NCBI GenBank assembly: GCA_963714975.1
Contig: CAVQQD010000002.1
Span: 512,001 to 576,000, forward strand
Length of the DNA stretch: 64,000 nt
Origin: an uncultured Gammaproteobacteria bacterium
GTDB taxonomy: Bacteria; Pseudomonadota; Gammaproteobacteria; JAURND01
Direction of reading: 5' to 3'
Positions 7,258-59,680 of the stretch are shown piece after piece. The translations under genes were made by a program, and so were the position numbers. Under the pieces are notes generated by a model. That model ran no database searches and was not told the DNA's origin. It saw only the letters and a program-made list of their open reading frames with translations. The stretch's first letter is position 1; every line of letters starts with the position of its first letter.

Positions 7258-7421
7258 CCCTTCTCTCCCTGGAAAGAAGGTGGCCGTAGGCCGGATGAGG
7301 GTGTTTTTTCTAGCTTTAAGCTATTTCAAACACCCTCACCCGCCTTCGGCATCCTCTCCCGCAAGCGGGAGAGGGGATTAAGTGCGGCCCCCTCGGCACC
7401 TTCTTCCACAAGCAGGGGAGA
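7258..7421. repeat. Family A palindromic element cluster (inverted pair plus partial third copy)
   Basis: ...GAAGGTGGCCGTAGGCCGGATGAGGG / CCCTCACCCGCCTTCGGCATCCTCTCCCGCAAGCGGGAGAGGG; overlaps the MFS gene 3' end. Confidence 0.85.
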
Positions 7422-8620
7422 AAATTGAATCTTTTTCTGCAGTGGTAAATACCCACCAAACTCATCGCAATTACCCCAAGCCCCATCAGTAATAAATAGA
7501 GATTCACCTGGTTAAAATGGATCATAGAACTTAATACCAGCGGTAACCCTCCGATAATGACGGCGGTGGAAAAATTAACACTAATAGTATAAATACTATT
7601 CCGATAGGCTTCAGGAGATGCGCGTACGATTAATTGTGGAATCGCGATAAATACTAAACCTGATAAAGCGGCTTGGCTGTAATAAAAAATTAAAATCCAT
7701 TGTGGTGTACCGGCAATGAATAATATGCCCATTAGGATATGTAATGTGACAATCATGGTTATGATTAGAGGAATTTGCCAGTTTTTAAATCCAGATTTAA
7801 AGAACAATCGTCCTGATAGAAAACAGCTAAGACTGGCAATAATGCCGCAGATTAATCCGGTATGCGGGCTGTTAATTTGATATTTTTCTAAAATGCTAGT
7901 GCTGGTCATCATATAAAGCCAGTTAATGTTCACCAGGCAATTCGCAAAACATCCAAATAAAACCGGTTTTAGATGGTTCGAAAATAAATCATAAATACTC
8001 ACTTGATGCCTGCGCTCTGGAAATTGAATGGTGCGGCGGATTAAATACACGGCCAAACCAAAAATTCCGCCAAAAATAAACGGCAAGCGCCAGTAAAAAG
8101 ACATCGAACCGGTACTTTTGACCAATAAGACAATTAAGCAAGCGATGACAAAACCGCCAAAAAGGAAGGTATAAAGTACGCTGTGGTTTTTATAGCGTTG
8201 TTCTGGCTTGGATTGTTCAAAGAGCAGCACAATCGCTGAGCTGAGCTCACCACTGATCGACACGCCTTGCAGCATTCTCAAGGCTAACAGTAAGATGGGG
8301 GCCGCCATACCAATTTGGTCATAAGTGGGTAAGAAGCCAATCAACATCGTCACGACCGCCATAAACAACATGGAATTACGAAACACCCAAGACTTTCCTG
8401 ATTTATCTCCTAAAATTCCCCACAGCACACCACTGATGGGGCGGATGATAAATATAATGGAAAAACTCAGTGTGGCGAGAAATTCCTGGTGCGCGCTAAA
8501 TTTTAAAAAATTCCTGGCGATTTCCGGCATTAAAAAGGCGAATAAATAACTATCGTAGACTTCTAAAAAAGTGCCAGCGCAAATAATGAAAATGTGTTTT
8601 AAGGAAAAATTTTGGGACAT
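7316..8620 (-). CDS. MFS transporter (ProP/MHS-like); C-terminus derived from family A repeats
   Basis: GTFLEVYD, RPISG..WG.LGDK.G and LRMLQGVSISGE motifs; about 12 hydrophobic segments. Confidence 0.88.
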   Translation of the reverse strand: MSQNFSLKHIFIICAGTFLEVYDSYLFAFLMPEIARNFLKFSAHQEFLATLSFSIIFIIRPISGVLWGILGDKSGKSWVFRNSMLFMAVVTMLIGFLPTYDQIGMAAPILLLALRMLQGVSISGELSSAIVLLFEQSKPEQRYKNHSVLYTFLFGGFVIACLIVLLVKSTGSMSFYWRLPFIFGGIFGLAVYLIRRTIQFPERRHQVSIYDLFSNHLKPVLFGCFANCLVNINWLYMMTSTSILEKYQINSPHTGLICGIIASLSCFLSGRLFFKSGFKNWQIPLIITMIVTLHILMGILFIAGTPQWILIFYYSQAALSGLVFIAIPQLIVRASPEAYRNSIYTISVNFSTAVIIGGLPLVLSSMIHFNQVNLYLLLMGLGVIAMSLVGIYHCRKRFNFLPCLWKKVPRGPHLIPSPACGRGCRRRVRVFEIA

Positions 8621-8625
8621 GGTGG

Positions 8626-9850
8626 TTAGTCATCTGGCTTAATTTTCTTTTTTCGTGCTGAAGCATGACGTTCACGCAATTCAATGTCAATGTACTTGTC
8701 GGTAATAGCGCTAGAGCTGTGCCCAGCGTCATCACGCACGTGCTCACGTGGGCGGTGCTTCACATCATCTGAAATCCCGGTATGTCTTAGCCAATGCACC
8801 GTGGCTGCTTTTAATTGTTCAGCTTCTTCAATAAATTGATCTTTCTGTAGGCGCAAAATTGCTTGATCAAAGCAATGTTGAACAATAATGCGAATTTGTC
8901 GTGTGCTGCTGATAGCACCGCGGCCGCGATTTTTTTTCAGTAATGGGGTGGTTTCCCCTGGATAGGGCAGGGGGGTAAATTTAAATATTGGCGATACTGC
9001 TTTAATGCCGCCAGCATATCATCACTGACACTGATGATGCGTTGTTTATTGCCTTTGCCTACTGTAGTAAACCACCAGTGACCATCTTGATCGTGGTGAA
9101 AATGCCCCATTTGGGGTTCCCAACGTTTTGACACCGCCAATTCTGAGATCCGCAGATACATACTATATAACGCTTTGATTATGAATAAACTGCGTTCGTG
9201 GATCTCGGGCTCTGCCTGTGCCATGAGTTCTGTGGTTTCAATGACGTAGGCCCATTGGGTCTCGCTTAGACGGCGGATGATCGGTTTACTTTGATATTTA
9301 CGTAGAAATTTACTTTTTTGCCGAATTTGCGTGACCGGGTTGACCTCGACATAGTTCTCTTGCAGTAGATAATTAAAAAAACTGCCGCTAATTGCAAATA
9401 GTGCCTGTAATGCCTGTTGCGAGGGGGTATATTTCGAGGGCTCTGGTTGTTCACCATGGCTATGTGCGATCTTAGTTACCGTCGCGATAAAAGGTCGCCA
9501 TTGCGGATTAGCGATCCGTTCGCCCAGATGTTGAGAAAGCGCGGCGCTTGTTTAACGCCAATCCAGGCATTTGGTGGTCTTTGACAGAATTCCACCCATT
9601 GTTCAATATCCGTCCGTTTAATAGCGGGTAGATTTTTGTTAGCCACTCTCCAAGTCCATTGCAGAAGACGCTCGATTTCACGCCGATAAGCATTAAAAGT
9701 AGCCTCACTGCCTCGATACATGCGTAAAAATTGGCAAGCATGGAAATAATCTTTTTGCTGTTCTGCCTGCAGGGTAAGTCGTGAGGCATGGTTATCCAGA
9801 TAATCAAGCTTGTCAAATAAGGGCTGAGGAGGCTGTTTTAGGTATTCCAT
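8626..9850 (-). CDS. Tyrosine recombinase / integrase (frameshifted)
   Basis: LRISE, GKGNK, HWLRH, AGH and TDKY catalytic motifs distributed over ORFs at 8626, 8937 and 9476. Confidence 0.8.
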
Positions 9851-9991
9851 AAGAGCTCATTGTAATCATTAGGCTAAAAAAAGAAACAGCCTTTTCTGGA
9901 TTATCTTGCCTTATTGCTAATAATCCTAAAAACGGCAGTTATACTAAGTTTGACGCAATCTAAATAATATTGAAATAGGAGGGGTACGTTC

Positions 9992-10519: not shown

Positions 10520-10555
10520 TCGTTGCTGCTAATCTTTTTCCTAAATTGTTTAATA

Positions 10556-10622
10556 CCCTCTCCCACAAATCCCCCCTACCCCCCTTTTTTAAAGGGGGGT
10601 AGGGGGGATTTGTGGGAGAGGG
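10556..10622. repeat. 32-bp perfect-stem palindrome: family D core inside family A arms; possible bidirectional terminator
   Basis: CCCTCTCCCACA-AATCCCCCCTACCCCCCTTT ttt AAAGGGGGGTAGGGGGGATT-TGTGGGAGAGGG between convergent genes. Confidence 0.9.
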
Positions 10623-10634: not shown

Positions 10635-11624
10635 CTATAACGCAGACCTTAGGTTAGAAACTTCTAGTTGTTGAGTGGAGTTTATTTGGGACGGCGCTGT
10701 AGTTGCGACACTCAGCATCCGATCCTGCTCTTGAGTAGTACGGGCCATGGCTCTTGCTAATTCATGCTGAATGGCAGTTGCCTGAGGATCTTGCATGCGC
10801 TGTGCGGAATTATAGACAATGCTAGCAAGCCAGGCAGGAAACTCTGCATTTCCCAGGTTGCGAATGCTTATCGCCACGGTACCATTGGGGCCTGATAATG
10901 TAGCCAGGCCTTGCATGTAGTTAGTATAGCTTTGGGAATCTTTCGCCAATGCTGCTGCCTGAATAGCCATCGCATAGGTCCACATGACATTGGAAAGAGA
11001 AGCTTTAATCTCCCTCTCCCCCGAAGATGGGAGAGAGTTGAGGAGAGGGGGCTCATAGTGCCCGTGTTGATATTGGACTGCCGCTTGGAGTGCTGCTTTA
11101 TTGGCTTCATAGGCAGATTTATTATGCAATGCATAGTAAGAAAGCAGATAACCCAGGGCCCAACCAGCAAAAGCAGTATTTTCGCTATAATTTGCTTGAG
11201 TGGGAGCATACCGGGTTGAAGTGAGTGCAGGCCGCAAATCGGCTGCAATGCGGGCCGCTTCTTTTTCTTGACTGGCATGCATGGCAATTAATAATTGACG
11301 CCCTTTCATCCATAAACCAAATTCCAGACCTTCTTTGCCTTCAGCCAATAATGTTTTGAATTGCTCCGCAATTTTTGGATTCGTGTAATGCTTTGGATTA
11401 GCTAATAAAGGCATACTCATCTGGTAGGCAGTTTTAGCTTCTTGCAAATATTTTCCTGCTAATTCATTCACATTAACTGTCACTTGTTTGTGTTCTTGAA
11501 AATAACGGCTGCTCATGGGTTCCTCTGTTGTTGTTATGGATAAACTACTGATTGAATCAAGCCCCAGGAGAAATCCTGTGACCACGATCACGACTATGTG
11601 CATAATATCTCTCTTTAACTTCAT
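10635..11624 (-). CDS. Hypothetical protein (start 11624 or 11516) containing an in-frame family A insert
   Basis: Long Ala-rich ORF; PPLLNSLPSSGERE peptide. Confidence 0.65.
   Translation of the reverse strand: MKLKRDIMHIVVIVVTGFLLGLDSISSLSITTTEEPMSSRYFQEHKQVTVNVNELAGKYLQEAKTAYQMSMPLLANPKHYTNPKIAEQFKTLLAEGKEGLEFGLWMKGRQLLIAMHASQEKEAARIAADLRPALTSTRYAPTQANYSENTAFAGWALGYLLSYYALHNKSAYEANKAALQAAVQYQHGHYEPPLLNSLPSSGEREIKASLSNVMWTYAMAIQAAALAKDSQSYTNYMQGLATLSGPNGTVAISIRNLGNAEFPAWLASIVYNSAQRMQDPQATAIQHELARAMARTTQEQDRMLSVATTAPSQINSTQQLEVSNLRSAL
11011..11051. repeat. Family A element in frame within the hypothetical gene
   Basis: TCCCTCTCCCCCGAAGATGGGAGAGAGTTGAGGAGAGGGG, similar to the copy at 27043-27084. 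Confidence 0.75.
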
Positions 11625-11752
11625 CGCTATTTCGAGGTTGCTATTGTAGCACGGGGGCTTATAATGACAAGCTGCAGTGTGAGCGTGTCGAAGGGGCATC
11701 TTCTCCCAAGGGGAGAGGAAATAATGTTGATGATAATAATAGAGAGAGTGAT

Positions 11753-12559
11753 ATGAGAAGATACTTATTAGCTGGTTTGATGTTTGTCTGGTGTATTGGT
11801 TCTTTGGCAGAAGCGCCACACGGGCCGGCATGCCGTCCTGGAGAAATTACGACGGCAAATGATTACATGGCAATTCAGTGGTATCGTACTTCCGCAGAGA
11901 AAAATGCTTTATACCGCGAGATATTTTCCATGGCTGAGCAACAAGTTCGGGCAAAAAAACGCTTTTTGAAACTAGAGCCACAGCAATGGGGAGTTGTTTT
12001 TGATATTGATGATACGTTACTTGATAATAGCCTACACAGCTATGAAAATGCCTTGTACTGTGCTGGCCAACATTCTATTGGTTCAACCGCTTTCTTTGTG
12101 CGAGAAGTTTCCGTCCCGACACCGGGTGCTAAAAAAATTACCTGTGATATTCGCAAGATGGGTGGTTATGTGTCATTAGTGAGCAATCGTGATGGGAATC
12201 AGACCGATCCACGGACTGGAAAGAATTTACTCGACGCCACTGTAGAAAATTTAAAGAAAGCAGGCATTTGTTTTGATCAAGTAGTGCTGGCCAATTCAGT
12301 GAATGGGAATAAAAATCCGCGTTTCCAAGCCATTAACTCAGGCGAATATCCTGCGGATATGATTGTGACTCGCAAGCTGCCGGCGCATCGCGTCATCGCT
12401 TACTTTGGTGATAATATCCAGGACTTTCCCAATACATTTCAGCAAGAAATGAAGCAAGAAAATCCTGAAGGACAGGCTTATGCTAATTTTGGAATTTCTT
12501 ATTTTGTGTTGCCAAATCCACTTTACGGTAGTTGGCAGCATGCCACAAAAAAACCTTAA
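11753..12559 (+). CDS. HAD acid phosphatase / 5'-nucleotidase, e(P4)-like
   Basis: FDIDDTLLDNS, SNR, GDNIQDF and LPNPLYGSW motifs; signal peptide. Confidence 0.88.
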   Translation: MRRYLLAGLMFVWCIGSLAEAPHGPACRPGEITTANDYMAIQWYRTSAEKNALYREIFSMAEQQVRAKKRFLKLEPQQWGVVFDIDDTLLDNSLHSYENALYCAGQHSIGSTAFFVREVSVPTPGAKKITCDIRKMGGYVSLVSNRDGNQTDPRTGKNLLDATVENLKKAGICFDQVVLANSVNGNKNPRFQAINSGEYPADMIVTRKLPAHRVIAYFGDNIQDFPNTFQQEMKQENPEGQAYANFGISYFVLPNPLYGSWQHATKKP

Positions 12560-14470: not shown

Positions 14471-14493
14471 TGGTATTCCTTTAGCAGCAGTCA

Positions 14494-14538
14494 CCCCTCA
14501 TCCGCCCTTCGGGCACCTTCTCCCACAGGGGGAGAAGG
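14494..14538. repeat. Family A element
   Basis: CCCCTCATCCGCCCTTCGGGCACCTTCTCCCACAGGGGGAGAAGG between ffh and pncB. Confidence 0.88.
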
Positions 14539-14549
14539 AATTATTCAGG

Positions 14550-19439: not shown

Positions 19440-20849
19440 ATGGTGTTTAATCGTGATTATTTGTCCCAGATATTGCAGCAATTAAATTTACCACCTCAGA
19501 TTATGGTTGCTTATAGCGGCGGCTTAGATTCCCACGCGCTGTTATATGCCCTAGTTGAGTTACGCAACTTAAATCCAGGACTTTCCTTGCGGGCAGTGCA
19601 TATCGATCATGGCCTTAGTGCGCGTTCCGTCGAATGGAGTGCGCATTGTGTTAGGGTATGTCAACAATTAGCAATCGAATGTATCATCAAGAAAATCCAA
19701 GTTATAGCCGCCGAGGATAGTTTGGAAGAAGTGGCGCGAAATTTAAGATATGCCGCTTTCGCTGAAATAATGATGCCCGGCGAATGTCTGGTGACGGCAC
19801 ACACCGTGGATGATCAAGCCGAAACCGTCTTGCTGCAATTATTGCGAGGAGCAGGCATTCCAGGTTTGGCAGCAATGCCCGTGGTTAAACCATTGGGACC
19901 GGGTAAATTAGCTCGCCCGCTATTATCCATAAGTCGAGCAGCATTACATACTTTTGCGTGCGAAAAGCAATTACGTTGGATTGAAGATGAAAGTAACTTA
20001 AATACTAATTTTGATCGCAATTTTATTCGCCATCAGGTCTTGCCGATACTACGAAAGCGTTGGCCCAGTACGGCTAAAGTAATCGCCCGAACCGCGCGCC
20101 ATTGTGCAGAAGCCAATGATTTACTAGCCGAACTTGCCACATCTGCAATTCCCGCTGAAGCCCTGTTCCCCGACGGGTCCTGCCGCGCGGGCAACCCGCC
20201 GTGCTCGCACACTGCGCGCGGCGTTGTTGCCCCACGCGTCACCCGTCGGCCAAAGTACTATAGAGCGGAAATTGCTGATTCCATACTGGGCGGAAGGAGG
20301 GGAAATTTCGCGTTAACCATCTCATGCTTACAATCATTTGATCCTAGTCAGCAAAAAAATGTATTGCGGGTGTGGCTGCGATCTCAGCAGTTTCGGGTGC
20401 CAAGTGAGGTGAAATTACATCAATTACAACAAGACTTTTTACACTCCAAAGCGAGTGCAACGCCCTATATGCAATGGGCGGGAGTAGAGGTGCGACGTTT
20501 TAAGGATAATTTATACGCCATGCCACCCTTGTCCGCTCATGATCCCGGAATAATCCTAACTTGGGATTTGCACCAGCCCCTGGCTTTACCCTCAGGTATC
20601 GGCGTTTTGCAACCGCACATGCTGGCAGCAGAAGGTGTCGATCTCTCAAATGGTTCTTTAGTGACGATCCGTTTTCGGCAGGGGGGCGAACGGTTTAAGC
20701 CAGCAGGCCGTTTTGGGTCTCATCCTTTAAAAAAACTTTTTCAAGAATGGCAAGTACCGCCTTGGCTGCGTGATCGTATACCGCTCATTTATTTGGAAGG
20801 ACATTTGGTCGCCGTGATTTGGCGGCCTTTTATTAGGGATGTGGAGTAA
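19440..20849 (+). CDS. tilS: tRNA(Ile)-lysidine synthetase with an in-frame repeat insert of about 44 aa
   Basis: AYSGGLDS, AHTVDDQAET, RPLL and VPPWLRDRIPL motifs. Confidence 0.93.
   Translation: MVFNRDYLSQILQQLNLPPQIMVAYSGGLDSHALLYALVELRNLNPGLSLRAVHIDHGLSARSVEWSAHCVRVCQQLAIECIIKKIQVIAAEDSLEEVARNLRYAAFAEIMMPGECLVTAHTVDDQAETVLLQLLRGAGIPGLAAMPVVKPLGPGKLARPLLSISRAALHTFACEKQLRWIEDESNLNTNFDRNFIRHQVLPILRKRWPSTAKVIARTARHCAEANDLLAELATSAIPAEALFPDGSCRAGNPPCSHTARGVVAPRVTRRPKYYRAEIADSILGGRRGNFALTISCLQSFDPSQQKNVLRVWLRSQQFRVPSEVKLHQLQQDFLHSKASATPYMQWAGVEVRRFKDNLYAMPPLSAHDPGIILTWDLHQPLALPSGIGVLQPHMLAAEGVDLSNGSLVTIRFRQGGERFKPAGRFGSHPLKKLFQEWQVPPWLRDRIPLIYLEGHLVAVIWRPFIRDVE
20145..20275. repeat. Family E element (GCAATT...AATTGC ends) in frame in tilS
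   Basis: GC-rich island; shares GTTGCCCCACGCGTCACCCGTCGG and a second block with the nlpD insert. Confidence 0.85.
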
Positions 20850-21144: not shown

Positions 21145-21417
21145 TTAGTCGATATCATCCTCATCGACATATTTTGCAAAGCTGCCTTTTTCGTGGACTT
21201 GCTGTGAAGCAGCATCTTTTATTCCTTGTGCCACTTTTTTCAAAGCAGCTTTATTATCAAATAACCATTTTTCGCGTGCTGGGATTTCGGTATAAGGCTC
21301 TAAAATAATTCGGTCATCTTTATCTTTTTTGATTAAAAATCCACTCACACCCTCTGCCCATCGACCTAGGGTAATTCTGCCTTTGGAATCTGGTCTTACC
21401 ATTTTTACACATTTCAT
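21145..21417 (-). CDS. AbrB/MazE-like antitoxin (putative)
   Basis: Start MKCVK after GAGGTGAG RBS; PDSKGRITLG swapped-hairpin motif. Confidence 0.7.
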   Translation of the reverse strand: MKCVKMVRPDSKGRITLGRWAEGVSGFLIKKDKDDRIILEPYTEIPAREKWLFDNKAALKKVAQGIKDAASQQVHEKGSFAKYVDEDDID

Positions 21418-22837: not shown

Positions 22838-22908
22838 TAAGCAATCCATACCTCGGTTTGTAGATCAACTAGGTCCTCGTTTTTTCGTAACCATCCACCA
22901 CGATTTTG

Positions 22909-23053
22909 CCTCTCCCCTTGTGGGAGAGGCCGCCGCGCCGTAAGGCGCGCGGGTGAGGGGTAGGCAGCATTTAGCTAATAAAATGCTTCTTGCTGATTTC
23001 AAGGTTACCCCTCATCCGCCCTTTCGGGCACCTTCTCCCACAAGGGGAGAAGG
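22909..23053. repeat. Family A inverted doublet (REPIN-like)
   Basis: CCTCTCCCCTTGTGGGAGAGG...GGGTGAGGGG, spacer, CCCCTCATCC...CCTTCTCCCACAAGGGGAGAAGG. Confidence 0.9.
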
Positions 23054-23102
23054 ATCAATAGACTGGGTCTGCTCTTGTTGTTAAAATGCCAGCTGTTCCT
23101 GA

Positions 23103-24938
<1,836 letters not shown>

Positions 24939-27042: not shown

Positions 27043-27084
27043 TCCCCTTTCCCCCGAAGGTGGGAGAGGGTTAGGGAGAGGGGG
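27043..27084. repeat. Family A element just upstream of ftsB
   Basis: TCCCCTTTCCCCCGAAGGTGGGAGAGGGTTAGGGAGAGGGGG. Confidence 0.8.
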
Positions 27085-27364: not shown

Positions 27365-28103
27365 TTCCTTGGCCCCCCTCACCCTAACCCTCTCCCACGA
27401 GGGGAGAGGGGATTTTATAAAATACTGGGCTATTATTCCTGCTGCAGGTCTTGGTAGACGGTTTGGTTCTGACACGCCGAAACAATACCTAATGCTCAAG
27501 GATAAAACTATCTTAGAACATACCCTCAATGTTCTCTTATCCTATCCTTTGTTTCAAAAAATAGTCGTTGTGCTAGCTTCAGCAGATCCTTATTGGTCAA
27601 CATTAACATTACCCAGTCGCACTAAAGAGCGGATTATCTGCGTTACTGGGGGCCAAGAGCGTTACATTTCGGTATATCAAGGTCTGGAAGTCCTTGATAA
27701 AATAGCCGCTCCTGAGGATTGGGTACTGGTGCATGATGCGGTGCGCCCTTGTCTTAACCATGCTGATTTAGATCGGCTTATCCAGGCATTAAAAGATCAT
27801 CCCGTAGGAGGGCTACTTGGCATTCCAGCGCAGGACAGTTTAAAAGCAGTTGATCCACAGCAGAATGTGCAGCACACCGTAGATCGATCCAACATTTGGC
27901 AAGCGCAATCACCACAAATGTTTCGGTTCAATAAATTAAAGCAAGCTTTGGAAAAAGTGATTCGAGAACAACAGTCAGTGACTGATGATGCGGGGGCCAT
28001 TCAGCTATTAGGCGAATCACCCCTGATGGTTGAAGGTAGTCGAGAGAACATAAAAATAACACGTCCCGAAGATTTGTTACTGGCAGAGAAGTTTATGCTA
28101 TAA
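27354..28103 (+). CDS. ispD: 2-C-methyl-D-erythritol 4-phosphate cytidylyltransferase (start uncertain)
   Basis: IPAAGLGRRF, PKQY, VHDAVRP and NIKITRPED motifs. Confidence 0.92.
   Translation: MLNNSLAPLTLTLSHEGRGDFIKYWAIIPAAGLGRRFGSDTPKQYLMLKDKTILEHTLNVLLSYPLFQKIVVVLASADPYWSTLTLPSRTKERIICVTGGQERYISVYQGLEVLDKIAAPEDWVLVHDAVRPCLNHADLDRLIQALKDHPVGGLLGIPAQDSLKAVDPQQNVQHTVDRSNIWQAQSPQMFRFNKLKQALEKVIREQQSVTDDAGAIQLLGESPLMVEGSRENIKITRPEDLLLAEKFML
27373..27411. repeat. Family A element at the ispD 5' end
   Basis: CCCCCCTCACCCTAACCCTCTCCCACGAGGGGAGAGGGG. Confidence 0.85.
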
Positions 28104-28245
28104 ATCCCCTCTCCCGCTTGCGAGAGCGGGTGCTGAAGGGGAACGTCGTCCCGGCATGGATGCCGGGATCCAGGGCATAAGGACATGAAACTTTAACGTC
28201 CTTGTTAACTGGATCCCGGCATCCTGCCGGGACGACGGTTGGGGG
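28104..28245. repeat. Family C element (28144-28237) flanked by family A remnants
   Basis: CGTCGTCCCGGCATGGATGCCGGGATCCAG...CTGGATCCCGGCATCCTGCCGGGACGACG. Confidence 0.9.
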
Positions 28246-29534: not shown

Positions 29535-29617
29535 AATCCCTCTGCTAATAAACCTCGGCATTGTTCCTTCTCCCCTTGTGGGAGAAGGTGGCCGCAGGCC
29601 GGATGAGGGGAGAGGGG
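29535..29617. repeat. Composite family A element
   Basis: 45-bp core 29566-29610 is the exact reverse complement of 59601-59645; flanks are also similar. Confidence 0.9.
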
Positions 29618-30206: not shown

Positions 30207-30984
30207 ATTTAAAGCGGGAATTGCGGTTCTAATCCTAAGTTTATTGACACCGGCCTGCACGCTAACTCCCACGGAGGAGGCGCCGATCATTGATGGCTGG
30301 CAACAGCCGGCATTCAGTGGGGATTATCGAGTGCAGCCTGGGGACACTATTTATTCCATTGCTTGGTCTTTTGGGATGGATTATCGTGCTATTGCTAAGT
30401 TCAATCAGCTCACTGAGCCTTACCACTTACATCCTGGACAGTGGTTGTATATGGCTTCTCGTCCCGCAATTTCTGCTGCAGCTCTGATCCCCGAGGGTGT
30501 TGCCCCACGCGTCACCCGTCGGAGCACGGTGGGGTGCCGCAGCGGCAGGACCCGTCGGGCATCAGGGCTGCAGCGGGAATTGCTGAAGGATCCAGTGCAC
30601 AGAGATGTGAAAGCGTCGTCCTGGCAATGGCCAACGGTTGGTAAAGTGGTACGTGGTTATTCACCTGCCTTTGGCGGCAATCGTGGTTTGGATATTAAGG
30701 GTAAGTTTAATCAACCGGTGTTAGCCGCTGCGGCAGGTAAAGTCGTTTATACCGGGTCAAGTATGCCGGGTTATGGTAATTTAATTATCATTAAGCATAA
30801 TGATAATGATTTGAGCGCTTATGCGTTTAATAAGACCCTGATGGTGACGGAAGGCCAGATAGTGAAGACGGGTCAGACGATCGCGATGATGGGGAAAAAT
30901 GAGCGTGGTGAAACCATGTTGCATTTTGAAATTCGTCGAAGTGGCAAGCCTGTAGATCCTAGGAGATACTTAAAGAATGATTGA
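30190..30984 (+). CDS. nlpD: LysM + M23 lipoprotein NlpD; linker made of repeat elements
   Basis: Lipobox-like TPAC; LysM YRVQPGDT; WQWP...GYGNLIIIKH...LHFEIR. Confidence 0.88.
   Translation: MPFGNKFKAGIAVLILSLLTPACTLTPTEEAPIIDGWQQPAFSGDYRVQPGDTIYSIAWSFGMDYRAIAKFNQLTEPYHLHPGQWLYMASRPAISAAALIPEGVAPRVTRRSTVGCRSGRTRRASGLQRELLKDPVHRDVKASSWQWPTVGKVVRGYSPAFGGNRGLDIKGKFNQPVLAAAAGKVVYTGSSMPGYGNLIIIKHNDNDLSAYAFNKTLMVTEGQIVKTGQTIAMMGKNERGETMLHFEIRRSGKPVDPRRYLKND
30459..30627. repeat. Family E element (30466-30583) within family C fragments, in frame in nlpD
   Basis: TCGTCCC[GCAATT...AATTGC]TGAAGGATCCAGTGCACAGAGATGTGAAAG-CGTCGTCCTGGCA. Confidence 0.8.
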
Positions 30985-32905
30985 GCGCATCCAACGATTA
31001 GATACTTTATTAGCAAACCAAATTGCTGCCGGAGAAGTGGTGAGCCGTCCTGCCTCTGCGTTGAAAGAGTTAGTTGAAAATAGCTTGGATGCGGGGGCAA
31101 CGCAGATTGAAGTGACGTTAGAAAAAGGCGGTATTCAATTAATTCGCGTCCGGGATAATGGTCGGGGGATTCATAAAGAAGATTTACCGTTGGCTTTAAG
31201 CCGACACGCCACCAGTAAAATTTCCACGCTGGAAGAGTTAGAATGCATCCAATCCTTAGGTTTTCGTGGAGAAGCTTTGGCGAGCATTGCTTCGGTATCA
31301 CGTTTGGTTTTAACTTCGCGCCAAGCCAATGAAACTTTGGCCTGGCAAATTAAAGCGGAAGGTCGGACGGCAGAAATTGAATTTAATCCGGTATCTCATC
31401 CCATGGGCAGCACTATTGAAGTGCGCGATTTATTTTTTAATACACCAGCGCGGCGAAAATTTTTACGCTCAGAAAAAACCGAATATTCCCACTGTGAGGA
31501 ATTGATTAATCGCATTGCATTAGCTTCTTTTCATGTTGCTTTTGTGCTGAAACATAATCAAAAAACTATTTTGCAATTGCCTCCCGCTATTTCTCAAGCA
31601 GAACAAGAGCAACGCGTGGGCAAATTGTGCGGAAATTTTTTTATCGAACAAGCCAAGGCTATACAGATTGGAAACCATTCACCCGTCGTCCCGCTCCCGC
31701 GACTTGATCGCGGGATTGTCCGCGGGATCCAGGATCCAGAAAGCAGGGATGCAGGATTTTCATTAGCGGGTTGGTTGGGCTTGCCGATTATTTCGCGCGC
31801 GCAGGCTGATTTGCAATATTTCTATGTCAATGGGCGCATGGTCCGTGATAAGTTAATTACTCACGCCATTAAACAAGCGTACCACGATGTAATGTATGGT
31901 CATCGCTATCCCGCCTATGTGTTATTTCTTAGTTTGGATCCAACTTTGGTTGATGTTAATGTGCACCCCACAAAATCCGAGGTGCGGTTTCGTGACAGTC
32001 GCTTTATTTATGATTTTTTATTTAGTCGCATCCATGAATCTTTGGCGCAAAAAGAGCAAGTCACCGCTGGAATTTCTGCTATAGCCGATTCAATATTCGC
32101 GCCAGAACCATGGGGGATGCAGCATCAATTGCAGATTAGTGAAGCAAAAGCAGACTACTTAGCGTACCAGGAAATCCCCCCTACCCCTCTTTTTCAAAGG
32201 GGGGGCGATAAAATTCCCCCCTTTTTCGAGGATGGGGATCAAGAAATTCCCCCCTTTGAAAAAGGGGGGGTAGAGGGGATTTCCTGCAGTTTAGCTCCCA
32301 GCCCCGTGCGGGAACGACTTGAGGGAGCTCTAGGCTATGCTCTTGGCCAATTACATGGCATCTTCATCCTAGCCGAAAATCAACAAGGCTTAGTGATTGT
32401 CGACATGCACGCCGCTCACGAACGTATTTTGTATGAAGAATTAAAGCTAGCTCATCAGCGCGAGAAAATTGTGCGCCAAACCTTGTTAATTCCACTGACT
32501 TTATCATTGACGACGCGAGAGGCGGACTATGTGCAAGAACAACAAGCTTTGTTTGCTGAGCTTGGGTTTGAACTCGAGCGAATTAGCCCAACGAGTTGTA
32601 TTATTCGCCAGGTTCCTGTGTTATTGAAACAGGTGGATGTTTTGCAGTTAATCCGTGATGTGATAGCAGATTTTCTAACTCTGGAGAAAAGCCAGCGCAT
32701 CGAACAACAATTCCATAAAGTTTTGGCGACTATTGCCTGCCACAGCTCGGCACGGGCTCATCGCCGTCTTACCCTCCCGGAAATGAATGCACTGTTGCGG
32801 CAACTGGAACAGACCGACCGCAGCGGTCAGTGCAATCATGGCCGTCCTACGATCAGGCAGTTTTCCCTGGAAGAATTGGATAAGTTATTTTTAAGGGGAA
32901 GATAA
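30977..32905 (+). CDS. mutL: DNA mismatch repair protein MutL with in-frame repeat inserts
   Basis: NQIAAGEV, GFRGEALASI, DVNVHPTK, DMHAAHER and CNHGRP motifs. Confidence 0.96.
   Translation: MIERIQRLDTLLANQIAAGEVVSRPASALKELVENSLDAGATQIEVTLEKGGIQLIRVRDNGRGIHKEDLPLALSRHATSKISTLEELECIQSLGFRGEALASIASVSRLVLTSRQANETLAWQIKAEGRTAEIEFNPVSHPMGSTIEVRDLFFNTPARRKFLRSEKTEYSHCEELINRIALASFHVAFVLKHNQKTILQLPPAISQAEQEQRVGKLCGNFFIEQAKAIQIGNHSPVVPLPRLDRGIVRGIQDPESRDAGFSLAGWLGLPIISRAQADLQYFYVNGRMVRDKLITHAIKQAYHDVMYGHRYPAYVLFLSLDPTLVDVNVHPTKSEVRFRDSRFIYDFLFSRIHESLAQKEQVTAGISAIADSIFAPEPWGMQHQLQISEAKADYLAYQEIPPTPLFQRGGDKIPPFFEDGDQEIPPFEKGGVEGISCSLAPSPVRERLEGALGYALGQLHGIFILAENQQGLVIVDMHAAHERILYEELKLAHQREKIVRQTLLIPLTLSLTTREADYVQEQQALFAELGFELERISPTSCIIRQVPVLLKQVDVLQLIRDVIADFLTLEKSQRIEQQFHKVLATIACHSSARAHRRLTLPEMNALLRQLEQTDRSGQCNHGRPTIRQFSLEELDKLFLRGR
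31684..31756. repeat. Family C (self-nested) in frame in mutL
   Basis: CGTCGTCCCGC-TCCCGCGACTTGATCGCGGGA-TTGTCCGCGGGATCCAG; peptide VVPLPRLDRGIVRGIQ. Confidence 0.82.
32168..32286. repeat. Family D triple hairpin in frame in the mutL linker
   Basis: CAGGAAATCCCCCCTACCCC...GGGGTAGAGGGGATTTCCTG; peptide EIPPTPLFQRGG...IPPFEKGGVEGIS. Confidence 0.88.
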
Positions 32906-40601: not shown

Positions 40602-40695
40602 GTGTCATCCCGAGCGCAGCGAGGGATCTGTTGTTCATGCCACATTCATGAGAATCCCTCGCTTCGCTCGGGATGACACCGCTCGGGATGACACC
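40602..40695. repeat. Family B element with a 15-bp terminal duplication
   Basis: GTGTCATCCCGAGCGCAGCGAGGGATC...ATCCCTCGCTTC(GCTCGGGATGACACC)x2. Confidence 0.9.
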
Positions 40696-42377
40696 TAAGG
40701 GAATTTTCTTAAACTAACATACTTAGGTTCCCAAATTTGCTCGTTGATACAGGTTGCGACATCCGCATAAGTGAGGGTAGCCACGCCGTCTTTTTGGGCT
40801 TGCAATGCAACACAAATGGCAATTTCACGAGCAATTTTTTGTGCATTTTTAAGCGGTGGTAATACCGACCCATGCCTATCTTGATGGATAGGCGCACACC
40901 GATTCAGCGCTAGGCACGCTTCCCACAGCATGTTATCAGTAACCTCCTTGGCTTTGACGGTAATGACGCCTAACCCAATTCCTGGAAATATTAACGCATT
41001 ATTGCATTGAGCAATAGGCCAATCTTGATTTTGGTAATGAACAGGTGGGAAAGGGCTGCCAGTGGCAATGAGAGCTTTACCTTGGGTCCAGTGAAATAAA
41101 TCTTCTGGCGTGGCCTCAACTTTTTCTGTGGGATTTGAGAGCGGAAGAATAATTGGTGTTGCAGTGTGTGCTGCCATGGCTTGTACCACTTCTTTCGTAA
41201 AAGCACCACTTTGCGCAGAACAACCAATCAGAATGGTTGGTTTGATATGGGTTACGACATCATATAATTGTGGCGAAGGCAGCCAATCCACTAGTTCATC
41301 GGCGGGGCGAGCAAAGGGGACTTGGGCTGGAGTTAAATCAGTAATGGTATCTACGAGTAAACCGGGTTTATCAATCAACCAAAAGCGTCGGCGGGCTTCG
41401 CTGTAACTTAGGCCCATCCGCACCATGGCAGCGGTGATTTGATTAGCGACCCCAGTTCCGGCACTACCGCTGCCGAAAATGACAATGCGTTGCTCGATTA
41501 AAGAAGAATCCGTACTTTTAATCGCGGCCAATAACGCTGCCAAGGTGGTCGCTCCTGTGCCTTGGATATCGTCATTAAATGAACAAATATCTTGTTGGTA
41601 ACGGTGTAAGATGCGATTGGCATTATCCCGACCAAAATCTTCCCAGTGAAGAAAAACTTGCGGTAAGTTTTCTTTGACTGCCTGCACGAAAAGCTCGATA
41701 AACTCATCATAAGCTCGGCCGCTAATGCGCGGATGGCGTAAACCAAGATAGAATGGGTCATTGAGTAGATCTTCATTATCAGTGCCAAGGTCTAATAGAA
41801 TTGGCAAAGTTCTTAAGGGATTAATTCCGCCGCAAATCGTGTAAACCATTAGTTTCGCCACTGGAATTAACATCGCACCAACCCCTTGGTCGCCAATGCC
41901 TAAAACCCCGCCGCCATCGCTGACTACAATCAAATCCACTTCAGGATTACTGCGGTTCATTAAAATTTCTGGGATACGAAAACGGTCTGCATAGGAAATA
42001 TATAAACCACGAGCTTGCTGAAATTCACGGCTAAATTTTTTAATTGCCGTGCTGACAGTTGGAGTGTAGACGATGGGAATCATCTCTTCTTCATGATGTT
42101 GCATCAACTTGTAAAATAACACTTGATTATAATCATGGAGCTTGTTGAGAAAGATATTTTTTTGCAGTGGTGTGGTATAAGTTTGATATTGCAAATAAGC
42201 ACGTTGTACTTGTTGCTCTAAAGTTTCTATTTGTGCCGGTAATTTTCCAGTAAGATTAAACAGACTGCGCTCTTCTTCGGTAAAAGCGGTCCCTTTGTTT
42301 AGTTGTGGTGTGGTCAATAAAGGCTTGCCACTGAGAGAGGTTTCAATCCAATTTTTTTTAATTTTAAAATTCAGCAT
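40695..42377 (-). CDS. maeA: NAD-dependent malic enzyme
   Basis: NKGTAFT, VYTPTV, LGIGDQG, FNDDIQGT and PLSNPT motifs. Confidence 0.93.
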   Translation of the reverse strand: MLNFKIKKNWIETSLSGKPLLTTPQLNKGTAFTEEERSLFNLTGKLPAQIETLEQQVQRAYLQYQTYTTPLQKNIFLNKLHDYNQVLFYKLMQHHEEEMIPIVYTPTVSTAIKKFSREFQQARGLYISYADRFRIPEILMNRSNPEVDLIVVSDGGGVLGIGDQGVGAMLIPVAKLMVYTICGGINPLRTLPILLDLGTDNEDLLNDPFYLGLRHPRISGRAYDEFIELFVQAVKENLPQVFLHWEDFGRDNANRILHRYQQDICSFNDDIQGTGATTLAALLAAIKSTDSSLIEQRIVIFGSGSAGTGVANQITAAMVRMGLSYSEARRRFWLIDKPGLLVDTITDLTPAQVPFARPADELVDWLPSPQLYDVVTHIKPTILIGCSAQSGAFTKEVVQAMAAHTATPIILPLSNPTEKVEATPEDLFHWTQGKALIATGSPFPPVHYQNQDWPIAQCNNALIFPGIGLGVITVKAKEVTDNMLWEACLALNRCAPIHQDRHGSVLPPLKNAQKIAREIAICVALQAQKDGVATLTYADVATCINEQIWEPKYVSLRKFP

Positions 42378-42410: not shown

Positions 42411-42686
42411 GTGTCATCCCGACTCCAGGGTTGTCATCCCGAACGAAGTGAGGGATCCCTCGCTGCGCTCGGGATGACACCCTGGAGTCGGGATGACACC
42501 CTGGAGTCGGGATGACACCCTGGAGTCGGGATGACACCCTGGAGTCGGGATGACACCCTGGAGTCGGGATGACACCCTGGAGTCGGGATGACACCCTGGA
42601 GTCGGGATGACACCCTGGAGTCGGGATGACACCCTGGAGTCGGGATGACACCCTGGAGTCGGGATGACACCCTGGAGTCGGGATGA
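42411..42686. repeat. Family B palindrome with 11 x 19-bp tandem array of its terminus
   Basis: GGGATGACACCCTGGAGTC x11 at 42471-42679; one inverted unit on the left arm. Confidence 0.96.
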
Positions 42687-42697
42687 TGCCCCGAGAG

Positions 42698-45026
<2,329 letters not shown>

Positions 45027-45031: not shown

Positions 45032-45124
45032 CGTCGTCCTGGCATGGATACCAGGATCCAGATCATAGGGACGTGAAACTTTGCATCCTGCAGACTGGAT
45101 CCCTGCTGCCATGCAGGGACGACG
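45032..45124. repeat. Family C element in the divergent intergenic region
   Basis: CGTCGTCCTGGCATGGATACCAGGATCCAG...CTGGATCCCTGCTGCCATGCAGGGACGACG. Confidence 0.88.
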
Positions 45125-46781: not shown

Positions 46782-46844
46782 AAATCCCCTCCCCCCATAA
46801 GCTTTTGCATTATTCCTTCTCCCCTGGTGGGAGAAGGAATAATG
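46782..46844. repeat. Family A-derived hairpin; possible terminator
   Basis: CATTATTCCTTCTCCC-ctggt-GGGAGAAGGAATAATG. Confidence 0.7.
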
Positions 46845-47900: not shown

Positions 47901-49753
47901 CTAAATTGTCACAGCAATTCCAAACCCAGCGCCGCTTCGATCAACTGTTATTGGCAGTTGCTCTTTTCTTTGCCATTGTTTTACTCGTATTAGCTGGCTG
48001 TATTGTTTTTAAATTGTATCAGGCTAGCATCCCAAGCCTCCAAGCCTTTGGTTTGAGGTTTTTGATTAGCAGCGAATGGAATCCGGTAACCGAGCAGTTT
48101 GGTGCTTTAGTCGCAATTTTAGGGACTTTAACTACAGCTTTTATTGCGCTTTTGCTAGGAATCCCGATTAGCTTTGGTATTGCTGTATTTCTTACTGAGC
48201 TAGCTCCGACTATGCTTCGTCGCCCGTTACGCATTTTAATTGAATTACTTGCTGGAATTCCCAGTATTATTTATGGCATGTGGGGACTGTTTATTTTTGC
48301 TCCCCTTTTCGCAGACACAGTCCAGCCTTGGTTAATCGAACATTTGGGTAGTAGACCCCTAATTGGCCCATTTTTCCAAGGGGTCCCAATGGGAATTGGG
48401 ATATTAACCGCTGGAATTGTACTCAGTATTATGGTGATTCCTTTTATTGCCTCGGTAATGCGTGATGTTTTTGAGATTGTACCTGATCTACTTAAAGAAT
48501 CTGCCTATGCTTTGGGCGCCACTCGTTGGGAAGTAGTGTGGAATGTGATCCTACCCTATTCTCGTATTGGTGTTGTGGGTGGAATTATTTTGGGATTAGG
48601 CCGTGCTTTGGGAGAGACAATGGCAGTCGCTTTTGTGATTGGCAATTCACATGCATTATCCGCCTCAATTTTGATGCCAGGCAGCAGCATTTCCTCAGTA
48701 TTAGCCAATGAATTTACTGAGGCCACTGGAAAAATTTATAGCTCCTCTTTAAGCGAATTAGGGTTAATTTTGTTTGCGATCACTTTAGTGGTTTTTGTGT
48801 GTGCCAAGTTATTGACGCAGAGGTTAAAAAAGATCCTCCTCTCTCATGCCTTCTCCCCTTGTGGGAGAAGGCGCCGAAGGCGGATGAGGGGAAAACCGGA
48901 AAAAAATATGACACTACTGTATATTAAACGCAGATTAGTTAATTTTATTAATCTATCCCTTGCGACCTTGGCTATGCTGATTGGCCTATTGTGGCTAAGC
49001 TGGATTTTATTTAGCCTGGTTCAAAATGGCTTACCAGGTTTCTCTTGGGCACTTTTTACCCAGATTACCCAAGCACCGGGTGGCCAAGGTGGGTTATTAA
49101 ATGCCATTATTGGCAGTTTATTAATCGTGTTTTTTGCGGTCATCATTGGTGCTCCCATCGGTTTATTAGTGGGCACTTATCTTGCCGAGTTTGGAAAATA
49201 TAGCCGATTTGCCCGCATCGTACGCTTTGTTAATGATATTTTATTGAGTGCTCCGTCGATTATTTTAGGTTTGTTTATTTATCAACTCTATGTCGTCAAT
49301 GTGCAACATTTTTCAGGCTGGGCTGGTTCTTTTGCCTTAGCATTCTTAGTGGTGCCTATTGTCGTGCGCATTACCGAAGATATGTTTCTATTAGTGCCTA
49401 GTTCATTGCGAGAAGCGGCGGCTGCTTTAGGTGCTCCGCGGTGGAAAGTAATTGCTGAAATTGTGCTACGGGTGTCGAGAACGGGGGTGATCACTGGGAT
49501 TCTATTAGCTTTAGCCAGGATTAGCGGTGAGACAGCCCCCTTGTTATTTACTGCGTTAAATAACCAATTTTTGAGCTTTAATATGAACCACCCCATGGCC
49601 AATTTACCTTCAGTAATTTTTCAGTATGCCATGAGTCCTTATGCCGATTGGCACCAATTAGCATGGGCAGGAGCATTACTCATTACCGCCTGTGTTTTGG
49701 GATTGAATATTATCGTGAGAGTTGTGTTTAAACAAAAGCCGCCAATCACTTAG
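47894..49753 (+). CDS. PstC-PstA single ORF (pstA ATG at 48908 is in frame; no pstC stop)
   Basis: PstC motifs [10 protein letters not shown] and RALGETMA, then PstA motifs APSIILG and RISGETAP. Confidence 0.88.
48849..48891. repeat. Family A element at the pstC/pstA junction
   Basis: CCTTCTCCCCTTGTGGGAGAAGGCGCCGAAGGCGGATGAGGGG. Confidence 0.9.
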
Positions 49754-52488: not shown

Positions 52489-52586
52489 CGTCGTCCCGCG
52501 ACTTGATCGCGGGATCCATGCCATTGAGACGCACGAAACGTTAACTTCCCTGCTCCCTGGATTCCAGCTTCCATGCTGGGACGACG
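52489..52586. repeat. Family C element
   Basis: CGTCGTCCCGCGACTTGATCGCGGGATCCA...TGGATTCCAGCTTCCATGCTGGGACGACG. Confidence 0.88.
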
Positions 52587-53631: not shown

Positions 53632-53636
53632 ATCAG

Positions 53637-53677
53637 TCATGAGATCCCTCGCTTCGCTCGGGAGGACAGCTGGGATG
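53637..53677. repeat. Family B half element
   Basis: TCATGAGATCCCTCGCTTCGCTCGGGAGGAC...GGGATGA. Confidence 0.78.
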
Positions 53678-57069: not shown

Positions 57070-58151
57070 TTAACGCAACTTCAGCGAAGCGAGTCCGCAT
57101 AGCACCAGCATGAAGGTAATAATCCAAAACCGCACGATTACTCGAGGTTCAGGCCAGCCTTTGAGCTCAAAATGGTGATGAAGGGGAGCCATTTTAAAAA
57201 TACGTTTACCGGTGAGCTTAAATGAAGCGACCTGTAATATCACCGAAAGCGTTTCTATTACAAATACCCCGCCCATAATAAAGAGCACTAATTCTTGGCG
57301 AACAATTACTGCCACAATACCTAAAGCAGCGCCTAGTCCTAAAGCGCCTACATCACCCATAAATACCTGGGCAGGATAAGTGTTGAACCATAAAAAGCCT
57401 AAGCCTGCTCCGACCAGAGCGGCGCAAAAGACTGCGACTTCTCCTGCACCAGGGACATAGGGAATGGTTAAATATTTAGAAAATTCAAAATTACCACTTA
57501 AATAAGCAAAAATAGCCATAGCGCCAGCGACCATTACTGTGGGCAGAATGGCCAGCCCATCTAGGCCATCAGTCAGGTTGACGGCATTACTGGTGCCGAC
57601 AATCACAAAATAAGCCAATAAAATATACAACAAACCTAAGTTAATACTGACATTCTTGAGATAGGGAATTAACAACTGGGTTTCAGCAGGTGTTTTCGCC
57701 ATGTAGTAGAGAATAACAGCGATGGTAATACCCAATATAGATTGCCAAAGATATTTCCAGCGCGCTGGTAAACCACTGGGTGATTTCTTGCTAAGTTTTA
57801 GATAATCATCTAACCATCCAATAATGCCAAATCCCAGCATACCAAACAGGGTTAGCCAAATGTAGGGATTGGCTAAATACCCCACAACAAAATGCTGGCG
57901 CTGATAGCAATGAGGATTAGGGTGCCTCCCATAGTGGGTGTGCCGGCTTTGGAGAAATGGCTCTTCGGTCCATCGTTGCGCACCACTTGCCCGACTTGAT
58001 GATGACTGAGCGCATCAATCATTTTGGGGCCGACAATCAGAGCGATCACCAGCGCAGTGAGCGCGGCGAGAATCGAGCGAAAAGTGAGATATTGAAAAAC
58101 CCGAAAGCCTTCGTAATAGTGTTGTAAAAATTGCGTTAGCCAAAGTAACAT
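57070..58151 (-). CDS. mraY: Phospho-MurNAc-pentapeptide transferase (frameshift near 57880)
   Basis: [23 protein letters not shown] and APLHHHFE motifs. Confidence 0.94.
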
Positions 58152-58152
58152 A

Positions 58153-59566
58153 TTAAGCCTCTCCTTCTAAAGCAGCGACAATTTTCCCATTTTGCATCGA
58201 GCGCGATCCTTTAATCAATGCGGTCGTTTGAGCATTAAGTTGTAATTTCAAGGCAGCAATTAATTGCTGTTGTTCAGAAAAATGTTGGGCTTGCTGACCA
58301 AAGGCTGCTACTGCTAAGCGGCTCAACTCACCATAGGCAAATAATTGCGTAATGCCCAAACGCTGTGCTTCATAGCCAAGCAATTTTAATGAAATATTCG
58401 GGCCCATAGGAGCCTAATTCTTTCATGTCGGCAAGTACCAAAATTTTAATTCCGGGCATATGAGCTAATACTTCAATAGCTGCTTGGGCTGAGCGTGGAT
58501 TGGCATTGTAACTATCATCAATAATCCGTGCGCCATTGGTTAAGTATTTTATTTGTAAGCGTTTGTTTACCGCTTGAGTATTTTCCAAGCCCTGTTTTAT
58601 CGCAGTCAATGGTATATTCAGTGCGCAAGCGCAAGCAGCTGCTGCCAAGGCATTGGCAATATTATGTTTTCCTAGCAGAGGCAGTTGAATAAAAATGGTT
58701 CCATAGGGGGTATGTAGAGTAAATTCAGGATTTCCTTCGGGATTTATTAAGGGACTTTCTGCCCAAATAGATGCTTTTTTCTGAAGGCCAAAGTGGAGAA
58801 TTTTCTTGGTTGGCACGAGAGATTCCCAATAGGGGGCAAAGTGATCGTCAGCATTAATGATGGCAATTCCAGTCTCATCGAGTCCGCGAAAAATTTCGCC
58901 TTTTGCCTGTGCTACTCCTTCTAGAGTTTGTACTCCTTGCAAATGAGCAGGTGCTGCATTAGTAATTAGGGCAATGGTCGGATGAGCGAGCTGCGATAAA
59001 TGAGCAATTTCACCAAAATGATTCATCCCTATTTCAATCACGGCATATTGATGATCAGAATTTAATCCCAATAGGGTCAGCGGGACACCGATTTCATTAT
59101 TAAAACTTTTTTCGCTAGCCAAAACTTTGTTGGATCCCTCGCTGCGCTCGGGATGACACCCCTGCTCGGGATGACACGCCTGCTCGGGATGACCCCCCCC
59201 CTGCTGCAGAATGCTGGCGAGCATAGAGCGCACGGTAGTTTTACCACAACTACCGGTGATGCCGATCATTGGCAGCGTAAATTGTTGCCGATGAAAACGC
59301 GCAAATTGTCCCAGTGCCTGAATCGTGTCGTTGACTTGTAGCTGTGGTAGCGGGCAGGGCAGGGGGTGCTGGACCAAGGCGGCAGCGGCCTGCTGTTGTT
59401 TTGCCATGGCAATAAAATCATGGCCATCGAAATGAGGGCCTTTGATGGCGACAAATAATTCTCCAGGTTGTAAGCTGCGGGTATCCGTGCTCACACCTTG
59501 AAAACAGACATCTGCGCCTAACAGTTGGCCGCTAAGTAAATGGCTAAGACTTGAAAGTTGTATCAT
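58153..59566 (-). CDS. murF: MurF ligase (frameshifts near the 3' end; in-frame family B insert)
   Basis: [30 protein letters not shown] and IKGSR motifs. Confidence 0.92.
59132..59203. repeat. Family B arm plus three terminal units (18, 18 and 21 bp) in frame in murF
   Basis: GGATCCCTCGCTGC(GCTCGGGATGAC....)x3; peptide [23 protein letters not shown]. Confidence 0.9.
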
Positions 59567-59572
59567 TATACA

Positions 59573-59680
59573 CTCCCTCTCCCTACTGCCCTCTCAAATC
59601 CCCCTCATCCGGCCTGCGGCCACCTTCTCCCACAAGGGGAGAAGGGATGCTGCCGAGAGTTTATAGAGGAGAGGGGATTA
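59573..59680. repeat. Composite family A element at the murE/murF junction
   Basis: Core 59601-59645 identical (reverse complement) to 29566-29610. Confidence 0.9.

Follow-up and report, generated by a model that had tools for sequence, protein, structure and literature searches.

What kind of element gives rise to short GC-rich hairpins that are read in frame inside essential bacterial genes, and what has spread it? This question is raised by a stretch of 64,000 nucleotides from the genome of an uncultured gammaproteobacterium (GenBank assembly GCA_963714975.1, contig CAVQQD010000002.1, positions 512,001 to 576,000), referred to below as the window. The original prediction, made from the letters of this DNA, described about 30 palindromic elements of at least five unrelated families (A to E) between positions 7258 and 59680, and interpreted them as an active system that generates new peptide segments. 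Our analysis points in another direction. Small nuclease genes are bracketed by matching variants of the repeats, both in this genome and in others. We consider it probable that the repeats are dispersed hairpin families tied to small cognate nucleases, and that their copies inside genes are a tolerated by-product of this relationship and not its purpose.

Repeat families and their abundance

The genome is represented by an assembly of three contigs (2.56 Mb, 2,559,048 bases, 42-45% GC), in which the window corresponds to C2:512001-576000. A multiplicity map of 13-mers revealed 102 stretches in the whole window. Within 7258-59680 there are 36 repeat stretches, which by our count merge into 28 sites; the estimate of about 30 elements was therefore accurate, and all five families were recovered. 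GC content is at least 50% in 34 of the 36 stretches, and multiplicity in the genome reaches 174. With up to 3 mismatches allowed, family B (GTCATCCCGAGCGNAGCGAGGGATC) matches the window eight times; 100 dinucleotide-preserving shuffles gave no match.

Profiles seeded with the window copies were searched against the genome with nhmmer and iterated once. They detected 229 loci of family A, 71 of A2, 64 of B, 71 of C, 81 of D, 62 of E and 10 of F. Together the seven profiles account for 588 loci and 33,058 of the 2,559,048 bases (1.3% of the genome), so that the presence of several distinct families at tens to hundreds of copies was borne out by the scan. The window contains 25 profile loci against about 15 expected at uniform density, and its repeat density is only mildly above that of the rest of the genome. 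Relative to their consensus, copies of A have a median identity of 93.5%, and the medians lie between 88 and 95% for A, A2, B and D; C (82.5%) and E (81%) are the most diverged families. An identity of the repeats with a known structured RNA is unsupported by the scans performed on the window, where Rfam at gathering thresholds gave no match and ARAGORN found neither tRNA nor tmRNA.

Build of the families and published hairpin classes

Families B and C are built alike, with a GTC(A/G)T lead-in (GTCAT or GTCGT), a CCC...GGG stem and an ATC tail, and occur mostly as inverted doublets. Judged by their layout, they appear to resemble the published Ssn-related motifs (SRM). SsnA was described as a 94-residue GIY-YIG nuclease whose target in single-stranded DNA is a directional hairpin (NTS): it binds this hairpin and cuts the DNA directly upstream of it (PMC11893778, Chenal et al. 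2025). According to the same report, ssnA homologues of many phyla are flanked by SRM, the SsnA/NTS pair modulates natural transformation in Neisseria meningitidis, and 2% of the NTS copies of this species lie inside genes (PMC11893778). The situation in our genome is similar in that inverted, genome-dispersed hairpin repeats bracket the gene for a GIY-YIG protein with a single domain and about 95 residues, the GTCAT-type lead-in gives the hairpin a direction, and the homologues of two relatives are bracketed by sequences fitting the published pattern. It differs in several respects. B lies outside that pattern and C fits it only with one position relaxed; about 15-20% of the B and C loci are in frame within open reading frames (ORFs), compared with the 2% reported for N. 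meningitidis (PMC11893778); this genome has no C-type ssnA gene; and the nuclease activity is here predicted from sequence.

Upstream of a complete hairpin, 5' arms of family B are repeated in tandem with a period of 14-26 nt at window positions 42415-42700, 59163-59194 and 24800-24835, and 36 of 260 B-arm clusters in the genome hold 2-12 arms. Because the published SsnA cuts just upstream of its hairpin, one may speculate that these arms are scars of repair or slippage.

A different block order, one pyrimidine block followed by two purine blocks, is common to families A, A2 and D. This order is compatible with repeats of the BoxC/intrastrand-triplex type, the formation of a triplex being a prediction. 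The first BoxC/triplex-type repeats date back to the 1990s, and to our knowledge no gene had been associated with them. The published layout of the BoxC/PIT/TMECO class (pyrimidine, loop, purine, 3-nt loop, purine; PMC4666352) is modified in most copies here: A2 has a long first loop, in A the blocks are altered and the second loop contains a hairpin, and D has blocks of G5-6. The BoxC/TMECO consensus, CCCTCNCCC N3-6 GGGNGAGGG N3 GGGNGAGGG, is matched exactly at 4 places of the genome, of which 27376-27410 lies in the window, and this number rises to 46 genome-wide if the first loop is allowed up to 40 nt; A and D are variants outside the printed consensus. TMECO was reported as always intergenic and, in that account, without a link to mobile elements (PMC4666352, Holder et al. 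2015), whereas in our genome 40 of the 381 A, A2 and D loci are in frame within ORFs and DUF559 genes lie between copies. Contrary to what had been claimed, the families are thus not all unrelated: B and C share the Ssn-related layout, and A, A2 and D that of BoxC/triplex repeats.

Family E stands apart as a long hairpin of 130 nt (-68 kcal/mol) with 12-nt inverted ends; in comparison with miniature inverted-repeat transposable elements, the other families are plain hairpins. The QMITE1 and QMITE2 elements of Coxiella burnetii also overlap 3' ends of genes in a reduced gammaproteobacterial genome. As described, they measure 150-400 bp, possess direct repeats and are restricted to gene ends (PMC5896051), and on this description an identity with QMITEs was set aside on grounds of size and structure.

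Candidate nuclease genes in this genome

The window itself has no match to Y1_Tnp, DUF559 or small GIY-YIG, in accordance with the earlier statement that a mobiliser is not encoded there. Searching the genome for nucleases flanked by the families, which had been suggested as a check, yielded candidates elsewhere for three of them. An intact DUF559 (Vsr-like) gene of 109 aa (C2:141322-141630) lies between inverted A2 arrays; its product matches the Pfam family with E 3e-43 and PDB entry 3HRL with 2.6e-26. Three decayed DUF559 genes of another subfamily adjoin copies of family A. The single small GIY-YIG gene of the genome (C3:640954-641241, 96 aa, intact) is bracketed by inverted B copies, one of them 250 nt upstream (C3:640680-640704, plus strand) and the other directly after the stop codon (641252-641276, minus strand). 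The 96-aa protein consists of one Pfam GIY-YIG domain (E 7e-16) with no other domain and no NCBIfam match. Between the upstream B copy and this gene there is a C-terminal fragment of an IS66 transposase (L133:1218-1445, on C3).

When C-type GIY-YIG and D-linked DUF559 proteins of relatives were used as tblastn queries against the genome, only the B-type and A2-type genes were matched. Families C, D and E look like orphans in this genome, because it lacks a C-type GIY-YIG gene or a further DUF559 subfamily.

Association of the repeats with nuclease genes in other genomes

Similar arrangements are found among the 20 related genomes that were compared, and nuclease partners missing from our genome occur there between repeats of the matching type. 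B-like copies number 32 in G002, 48 in G003 and 45 in G011, and the A core occurs in G003, G004, G005, G006 and G008. Members of one genus may have opposite contents: G002 has 32 B and 1 A-core match, G006 1 B and 221 A-core matches (counted on both strands, the core being palindromic). The GIY-YIG homologue of G003, 68% identical to ours, is bracketed by B in the same layout, and those of G002 and G006 by sequences fitting the published SRM pattern. C-type hairpins flank GIY-YIG homologues in G002 and G013, and stand only upstream of the homologue in G004; these flanks fit the SRM pattern only with position 5 relaxed. Homologues of DUF559 are bracketed by A in G004 and preceded by an A copy in G008, and other triplex-type variants bracket them in G002, G003, G006 and G007. 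One DUF559 gene of G006 has D-like hairpins downstream only.

The link between DUF559 and BoxC-type repeats holds across phyla. We used the best 80 of 277 confirmed DUF559 loci (48-64% identity), which come from Proteobacteria, Nitrospirota, Chloroflexota, Cyanobacteria/Melainabacteria, Actinomycetota, Spirochaetes, Patescibacteria and others. Flanks were usable for 77 loci. In 27 of these the gene stands between the arms of an inverted repeat that measures 20 nt or more (one of the 27 being a run of N), as compared with 4 of 77 in a control with mismatched flanks. At least one flank carries a triplex-block 9-mer in 58 of the 77. This signal is concentrated near the gene: where flanks of full 700 nt were at hand, the 9-mer was found within 350 nt of DUF559 in 51 of 66 loci and in the next 350 nt in 2 of 66.

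Co-occurrence was assessed in 150 genomes of the same class, one per family, with DUF559 called at E<=1e-20. The gene is present in 16 of the 24 genomes with at least 5 double-purine-block matches, in 5 of 21 with 1-4 matches and in 5 of 105 with none; without the unpublished genomes G046 and G148 the proportions are 15/23, 4/20 and 5/105. Several of the DUF559 matches in this sample have internal stop codons. For DUF559, an earlier study gives an odds ratio of 14.3 in its list of genes at which flanking inverted repeats are enriched (PMC9881135). Our literature searches found no paper stating a link between DUF559 and these repeats.

From these observations we derive a more specific proposal, to which we give an even chance: DUF559 (Vsr-like) proteins would be the partner nucleases of BoxC/triplex-type repeats, with variants specific to subfamilies. 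This would be a third nuclease-hairpin partnership beside RAYT-REP and SsnA-SRM. The genome studied here would then combine DUF559 and SsnA partnerships with orphan families that have lost their nucleases, and would have copies in frame in at least 49 genes. If true, the link would provide a function for a large family of unknown role, and a partner for a long-known orphan repeat. The two kinds of motif, Ssn-related and BoxC/triplex, were described separately; here both occur in the same genome, and each kind brackets a small nuclease gene.

Placement of the repeats relative to genes

A copy was considered to lie in an ORF if at least 60 residues of the ORF remained on both sides of it, and 3000 random 60-nt segments served as a control. 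This applies to 71 of the 588 loci (12%) as opposed to 1681 of the 3000 random segments (56%), that is, copies are about 4.7-fold rarer in ORFs. The depletion is strong, and the copies remaining in genes are what selection would let through. The 71 copies are spread over 49 ORFs. A Pfam scan covered 33 of these (window genes named before were excluded, as were four ORFs shorter than 230 residues and seven of synthetase size) and recognized domains in 31, among them UvrD, LigD, AcrB, PriA, GlyS, PrmA, NuoG, DnaX, CysS, PurL, DprA, ArgJ and Lhr. Stop-free reading frames make up 22 of the 36 frames of the consensus sequences. The embedded copies use many frames and both orientations, with no preference for either a frame or an orientation.

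ORFs of synthetase size (2300-3000 residues) include C2:14757-23861, C2:1109486-1117441, C2:1168725-1175720 and C3:802975-812007. Three of them have 3-5 in-frame A, A2 or C copies near one end, and C2:1109486-1117441 has one C copy.

The long ORFs of the window are mostly housekeeping genes by NCBIfam (ffh, tilS, pyrG, kdsA, eno, ftsB, ispD, ispF, surE and nlpD, as well as mutL, clpB, purB, pstSCAB-phoBR, mraY, murF, murE and ftsI). The following repeat sites were described among them (window coordinates; strand where assigned):

7258..7378, two family A copies, 7258-7301 on the minus and 7333-7378 on the plus strand; the final residues of the MFS transporter ORF 7316-8620 (minus strand) are encoded by the second; from nhmmer and translation
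10554..10622, perfect palindrome of 69 nt, D core in triplex-type arms; intergenic
11010..11053, minus strand, small triplex-type hairpin in frame in the hypothetical ORF 10635-11831
14491..14542, plus strand, family A copy between a pncB-like gene and ffh; profile seed
20145..20276, plus strand, family E copy (130-nt hairpin) in frame in the interdomain linker of TilS
22896..23055, composite of triplex-type and family A copies upstream of pyrG
24786..24891, triplex-type fragment and B doublet with duplicated 5' arms, C-terminal tail of PyrG
27045..27082, plus strand, short-loop copy (family A2) where the ftsB ORF begins
27376..27410, minus strand, exact TMECO/BoxC consensus copy just ahead of the conserved part of IspD (IspD profile match from ORF residue 25)
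28101..28238, triplex-type fragment and full C doublet (28144-28237) between ispD and ispF
29564..29610, minus strand, copy of family A following surE
30466..30626, family E copy and C fragment in frame in the LysM-M23 linker of NlpD
31684..31758, plus strand, nested C-type hairpins in frame in the N-terminal domain of MutL (25-residue insert, residues ~234-258)
32172..32282, pair of D copies within the disordered MutL linker, in frame
40602..40696, B doublet plus additional arm copies, on the downstream side of the malic enzyme gene
42415..42700, B doublet, then a tandem array of 19-nt units from one B arm (12 overlapping copies of 114 nt, spaced 19 nt apart)
45032..45124, doublet of family C with purB on one side and an ABC transporter gene on the other
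46812..46837, minus strand, core hairpin of family A before pstS
48847..48892, minus strand, family A copy at the pstC/pstA junction, open in frame
52489..52586, family C doublet (variant loop), intergenic
53635..53668, minus strand, single family B hairpin, intergenic
59132..59194, minus strand, one B hairpin and two extra 5' arms in frame in MurF (63 nt = 21 codons)
59601..59680, plus strand, family A copy and triplex-type fragment between murF and murE

Alignment with orthologues defined the extra segments. In TilS, the family E copy adds about 54 residues at the interdomain junction, where none of 9 relatives has them and a short segment stands instead. PyrG is extended by a C-terminal tail of about 40-50 residues through the triplex-type fragment and the B doublet; all 9 relatives end earlier. 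The N-terminal domain of MutL contains 25 extra residues between two conserved blocks, absent from 11 of 11 aligned relatives. At the DNA level one C-type hairpin is nested in the loop of another and a duplicated GATCCAG comes next, an arrangement suggesting that one repeat can land in another. For these three proteins the predicted in-frame insertion or extension is present in no relative compared. The two D copies further downstream in mutL lie in a linker whose length varies among relatives in any case. An AlphaFold model of MutL, built on the alignment with 11 relatives, has a mean predicted local distance difference test (pLDDT) score of 70. In this predicted model the insert residues 234-256 fall below 50 and lie between strands 226-231 and 262-268, and the linker 361-448 is disordered, also below 50.

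MurF has 366 residues over 345 profile positions, i.e. 21 extra, which is the length of its 63-nt array of B arms. The translations indicate that the MFS transporter tail and one hypothetical ORF read through copies, as had been predicted, and the listed insert peptides, VAPRVTRR among them, are present in the translations. The case of NlpD is weaker: an E copy is indeed in frame between LysM and M23, but the linker is equally long or longer in several orthologues, so that a segment of the same length there speaks partly against an insertion. Finally, pstC and pstA are read as one ORF of 619 aa (47894-49753) because the family A copy at their junction is open in frame.

Origin of the repeats and of their in-gene copies

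A plausible mechanism can be modelled on the proposals made for SsnA with NTS and for RAYT with REP. The cognate nucleases would act on hairpin DNA and in this way drive or maintain the spread of the repeats. Copies would land irrespective of genes, and those breaking a gene would be purged by selection. Survivors inside genes would be a multiple of three nucleotides long, free of stop codons, which is easy for GC-rich DNA, and located in loops, linkers or termini. A host function, like that of NTS in transformation, could coexist with such selfish spread.

Several points weigh against a nuclease-linked origin. Our analysis shows no copying or insertion step, and nucleases of the GIY-YIG and PD-(D/E)XK types are not transposases. 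No target-site duplication flanks the 24 full-length family E matches listed (of 68 E matches). A genome scan found no nuclease gene between inverted C, D or E pairs 150-2500 nt apart. Family A is the most abundant one and highly uniform (median identity 93.5%), yet the DUF559 genes adjoining it are decayed. In other genomes the partners do not always coincide: G011, with its 45 B-like copies, has no GIY-YIG match, D-type blocks adjoin 1 of the 66 cross-phylum DUF559 loci of the subfamily sampled, and 8 of the 24 repeat-rich genomes are without DUF559. The strict published SRM pattern occurs at 8 sites of the genome and at 4-10 in shuffles, hence without excess; 4 of the 8 fall in profile-defined family C loci, all four with a CGTCAT lead-in, and family B gave 0 fits to the strict pattern in the genome scan. 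Lastly, indel errors of the assembly make statements on the frame at the level of single bases not fully safe.

The alternatives fare less well when confronted with the same observations. The repeats might serve the host, by limiting recombination of transforming DNA or as terminators or signals for the nucleoid or replication, with nucleases that use or police them and copies which enter genes by accident. We regard this as rather unlikely. It would agree with the effect of SsnA/NTS on transformation reported in N. meningitidis (PMC11893778), with the presence of a dprA-type gene (the genome encodes DprA), with the intergenic location of most copies and with the strongly conserved cores, such as that of A. 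However, copy numbers from about 0 to over 100 within one genus fit invasion and loss better, and the copies in 49 ORFs, together with the nested ones, look like insertion events. The initial interpretation, a dedicated system in which elements spread to create new peptide segments, is very improbable in our opinion. The number of in-frame copies, many of them in housekeeping genes, and the occurrence of several in one protein (one C-type and two D in MutL, 3-5 in synthetase-size ORFs) could be taken in its favour. What argues against it is the depletion from long ORFs given above, together with the use of many frames without a preferred one or a preferred orientation, the permissive nature of the sites (linkers, termini or a low-confidence loop), and the fact that relatives work without these segments.

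Mobilization in trans of REP/REPIN-type elements by a RAYT, an HUH Y1 transposase, has to be considered as well, since inverted hairpin doublets resemble REPINs and the genome has three Y1_Tnp genes (C2:509016-509378, C2:659197-659559 and C1:106334-106696), the first of them 2.6 kb upstream of the window. As in REP/REPIN-RAYT systems, a small nuclease-type gene lies between inverted copies of a dispersed hairpin, often in inverted doublets; unlike in them, the bracketed genes are GIY-YIG and DUF559 and not HUH Y1, and the Y1 genes belong to an insertion sequence. The three Y1 copies are near-identical, including 400-nt flanks, and are of the IS200/IS605 type; two share the same change of Tyr to a TAG stop, and no repeat of families A-E stands at the ends of any of the three. 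A RAYT mobiliser was therefore rejected, and the REP/RAYT analogy drawn at the outset is most unlikely to apply. Extremely improbable, too, is the idea that the in-gene copies are assembly artefacts. It draws on the many frameshifts in essential genes, including a broken gyrA of which no other copy exists. Still, the extra DNA of 63-160 nt leaves the reading frame intact in all window cases that were checked, independently assembled relatives carry the same families, and consensus indel errors do not create repeats of 50-130 nt.

In their behaviour, the in-gene copies are closest to Rickettsia palindromic elements, of which several families were likewise reported to be inserted into unrelated housekeeping genes without loss of the frame, at positions that the protein fold allows (PMC10969869). 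The likeness drawn here concerns behaviour. The elements described there are about 150 bp long (PMC10969869), as compared with about 35-130 nt here, the host lineage is another one, and candidate partner nucleases are present in our genome. MutL, TilS, MurF, DnaX, PriA and CysS provide a clean case outside Rickettsia of palindromic repeats in essential proteins, and such genes may be useful for studying how proteins tolerate insertions. Annotators should also be warned that these repeats lengthen ORFs, merge them or add to them, as in the PyrG tail and the fusion of pstC with pstA.

Assembly quality and minor observations

About 8 frame changes within 1 kb disrupt the only copy of gyrA in the genome, and gyrA, serC, clpB, mraY and murF are split across frames in the window (2944-5498, 5513-6345, 36928-39538 and 57070-59566). 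Such splitting of essential single-copy genes probably reflects consensus indel error of the assembly and not gene decay.

Family F is a 117-nt repeat, represented in the window at 2113-2229; its 10 genome copies include none in long ORFs, and it has no Rfam match. Two pairs of direct repeats of 70-80 nt with 81-82% identity, located in the window at 21403-22159 and 21980-22840, point to local duplication of small ORFs.

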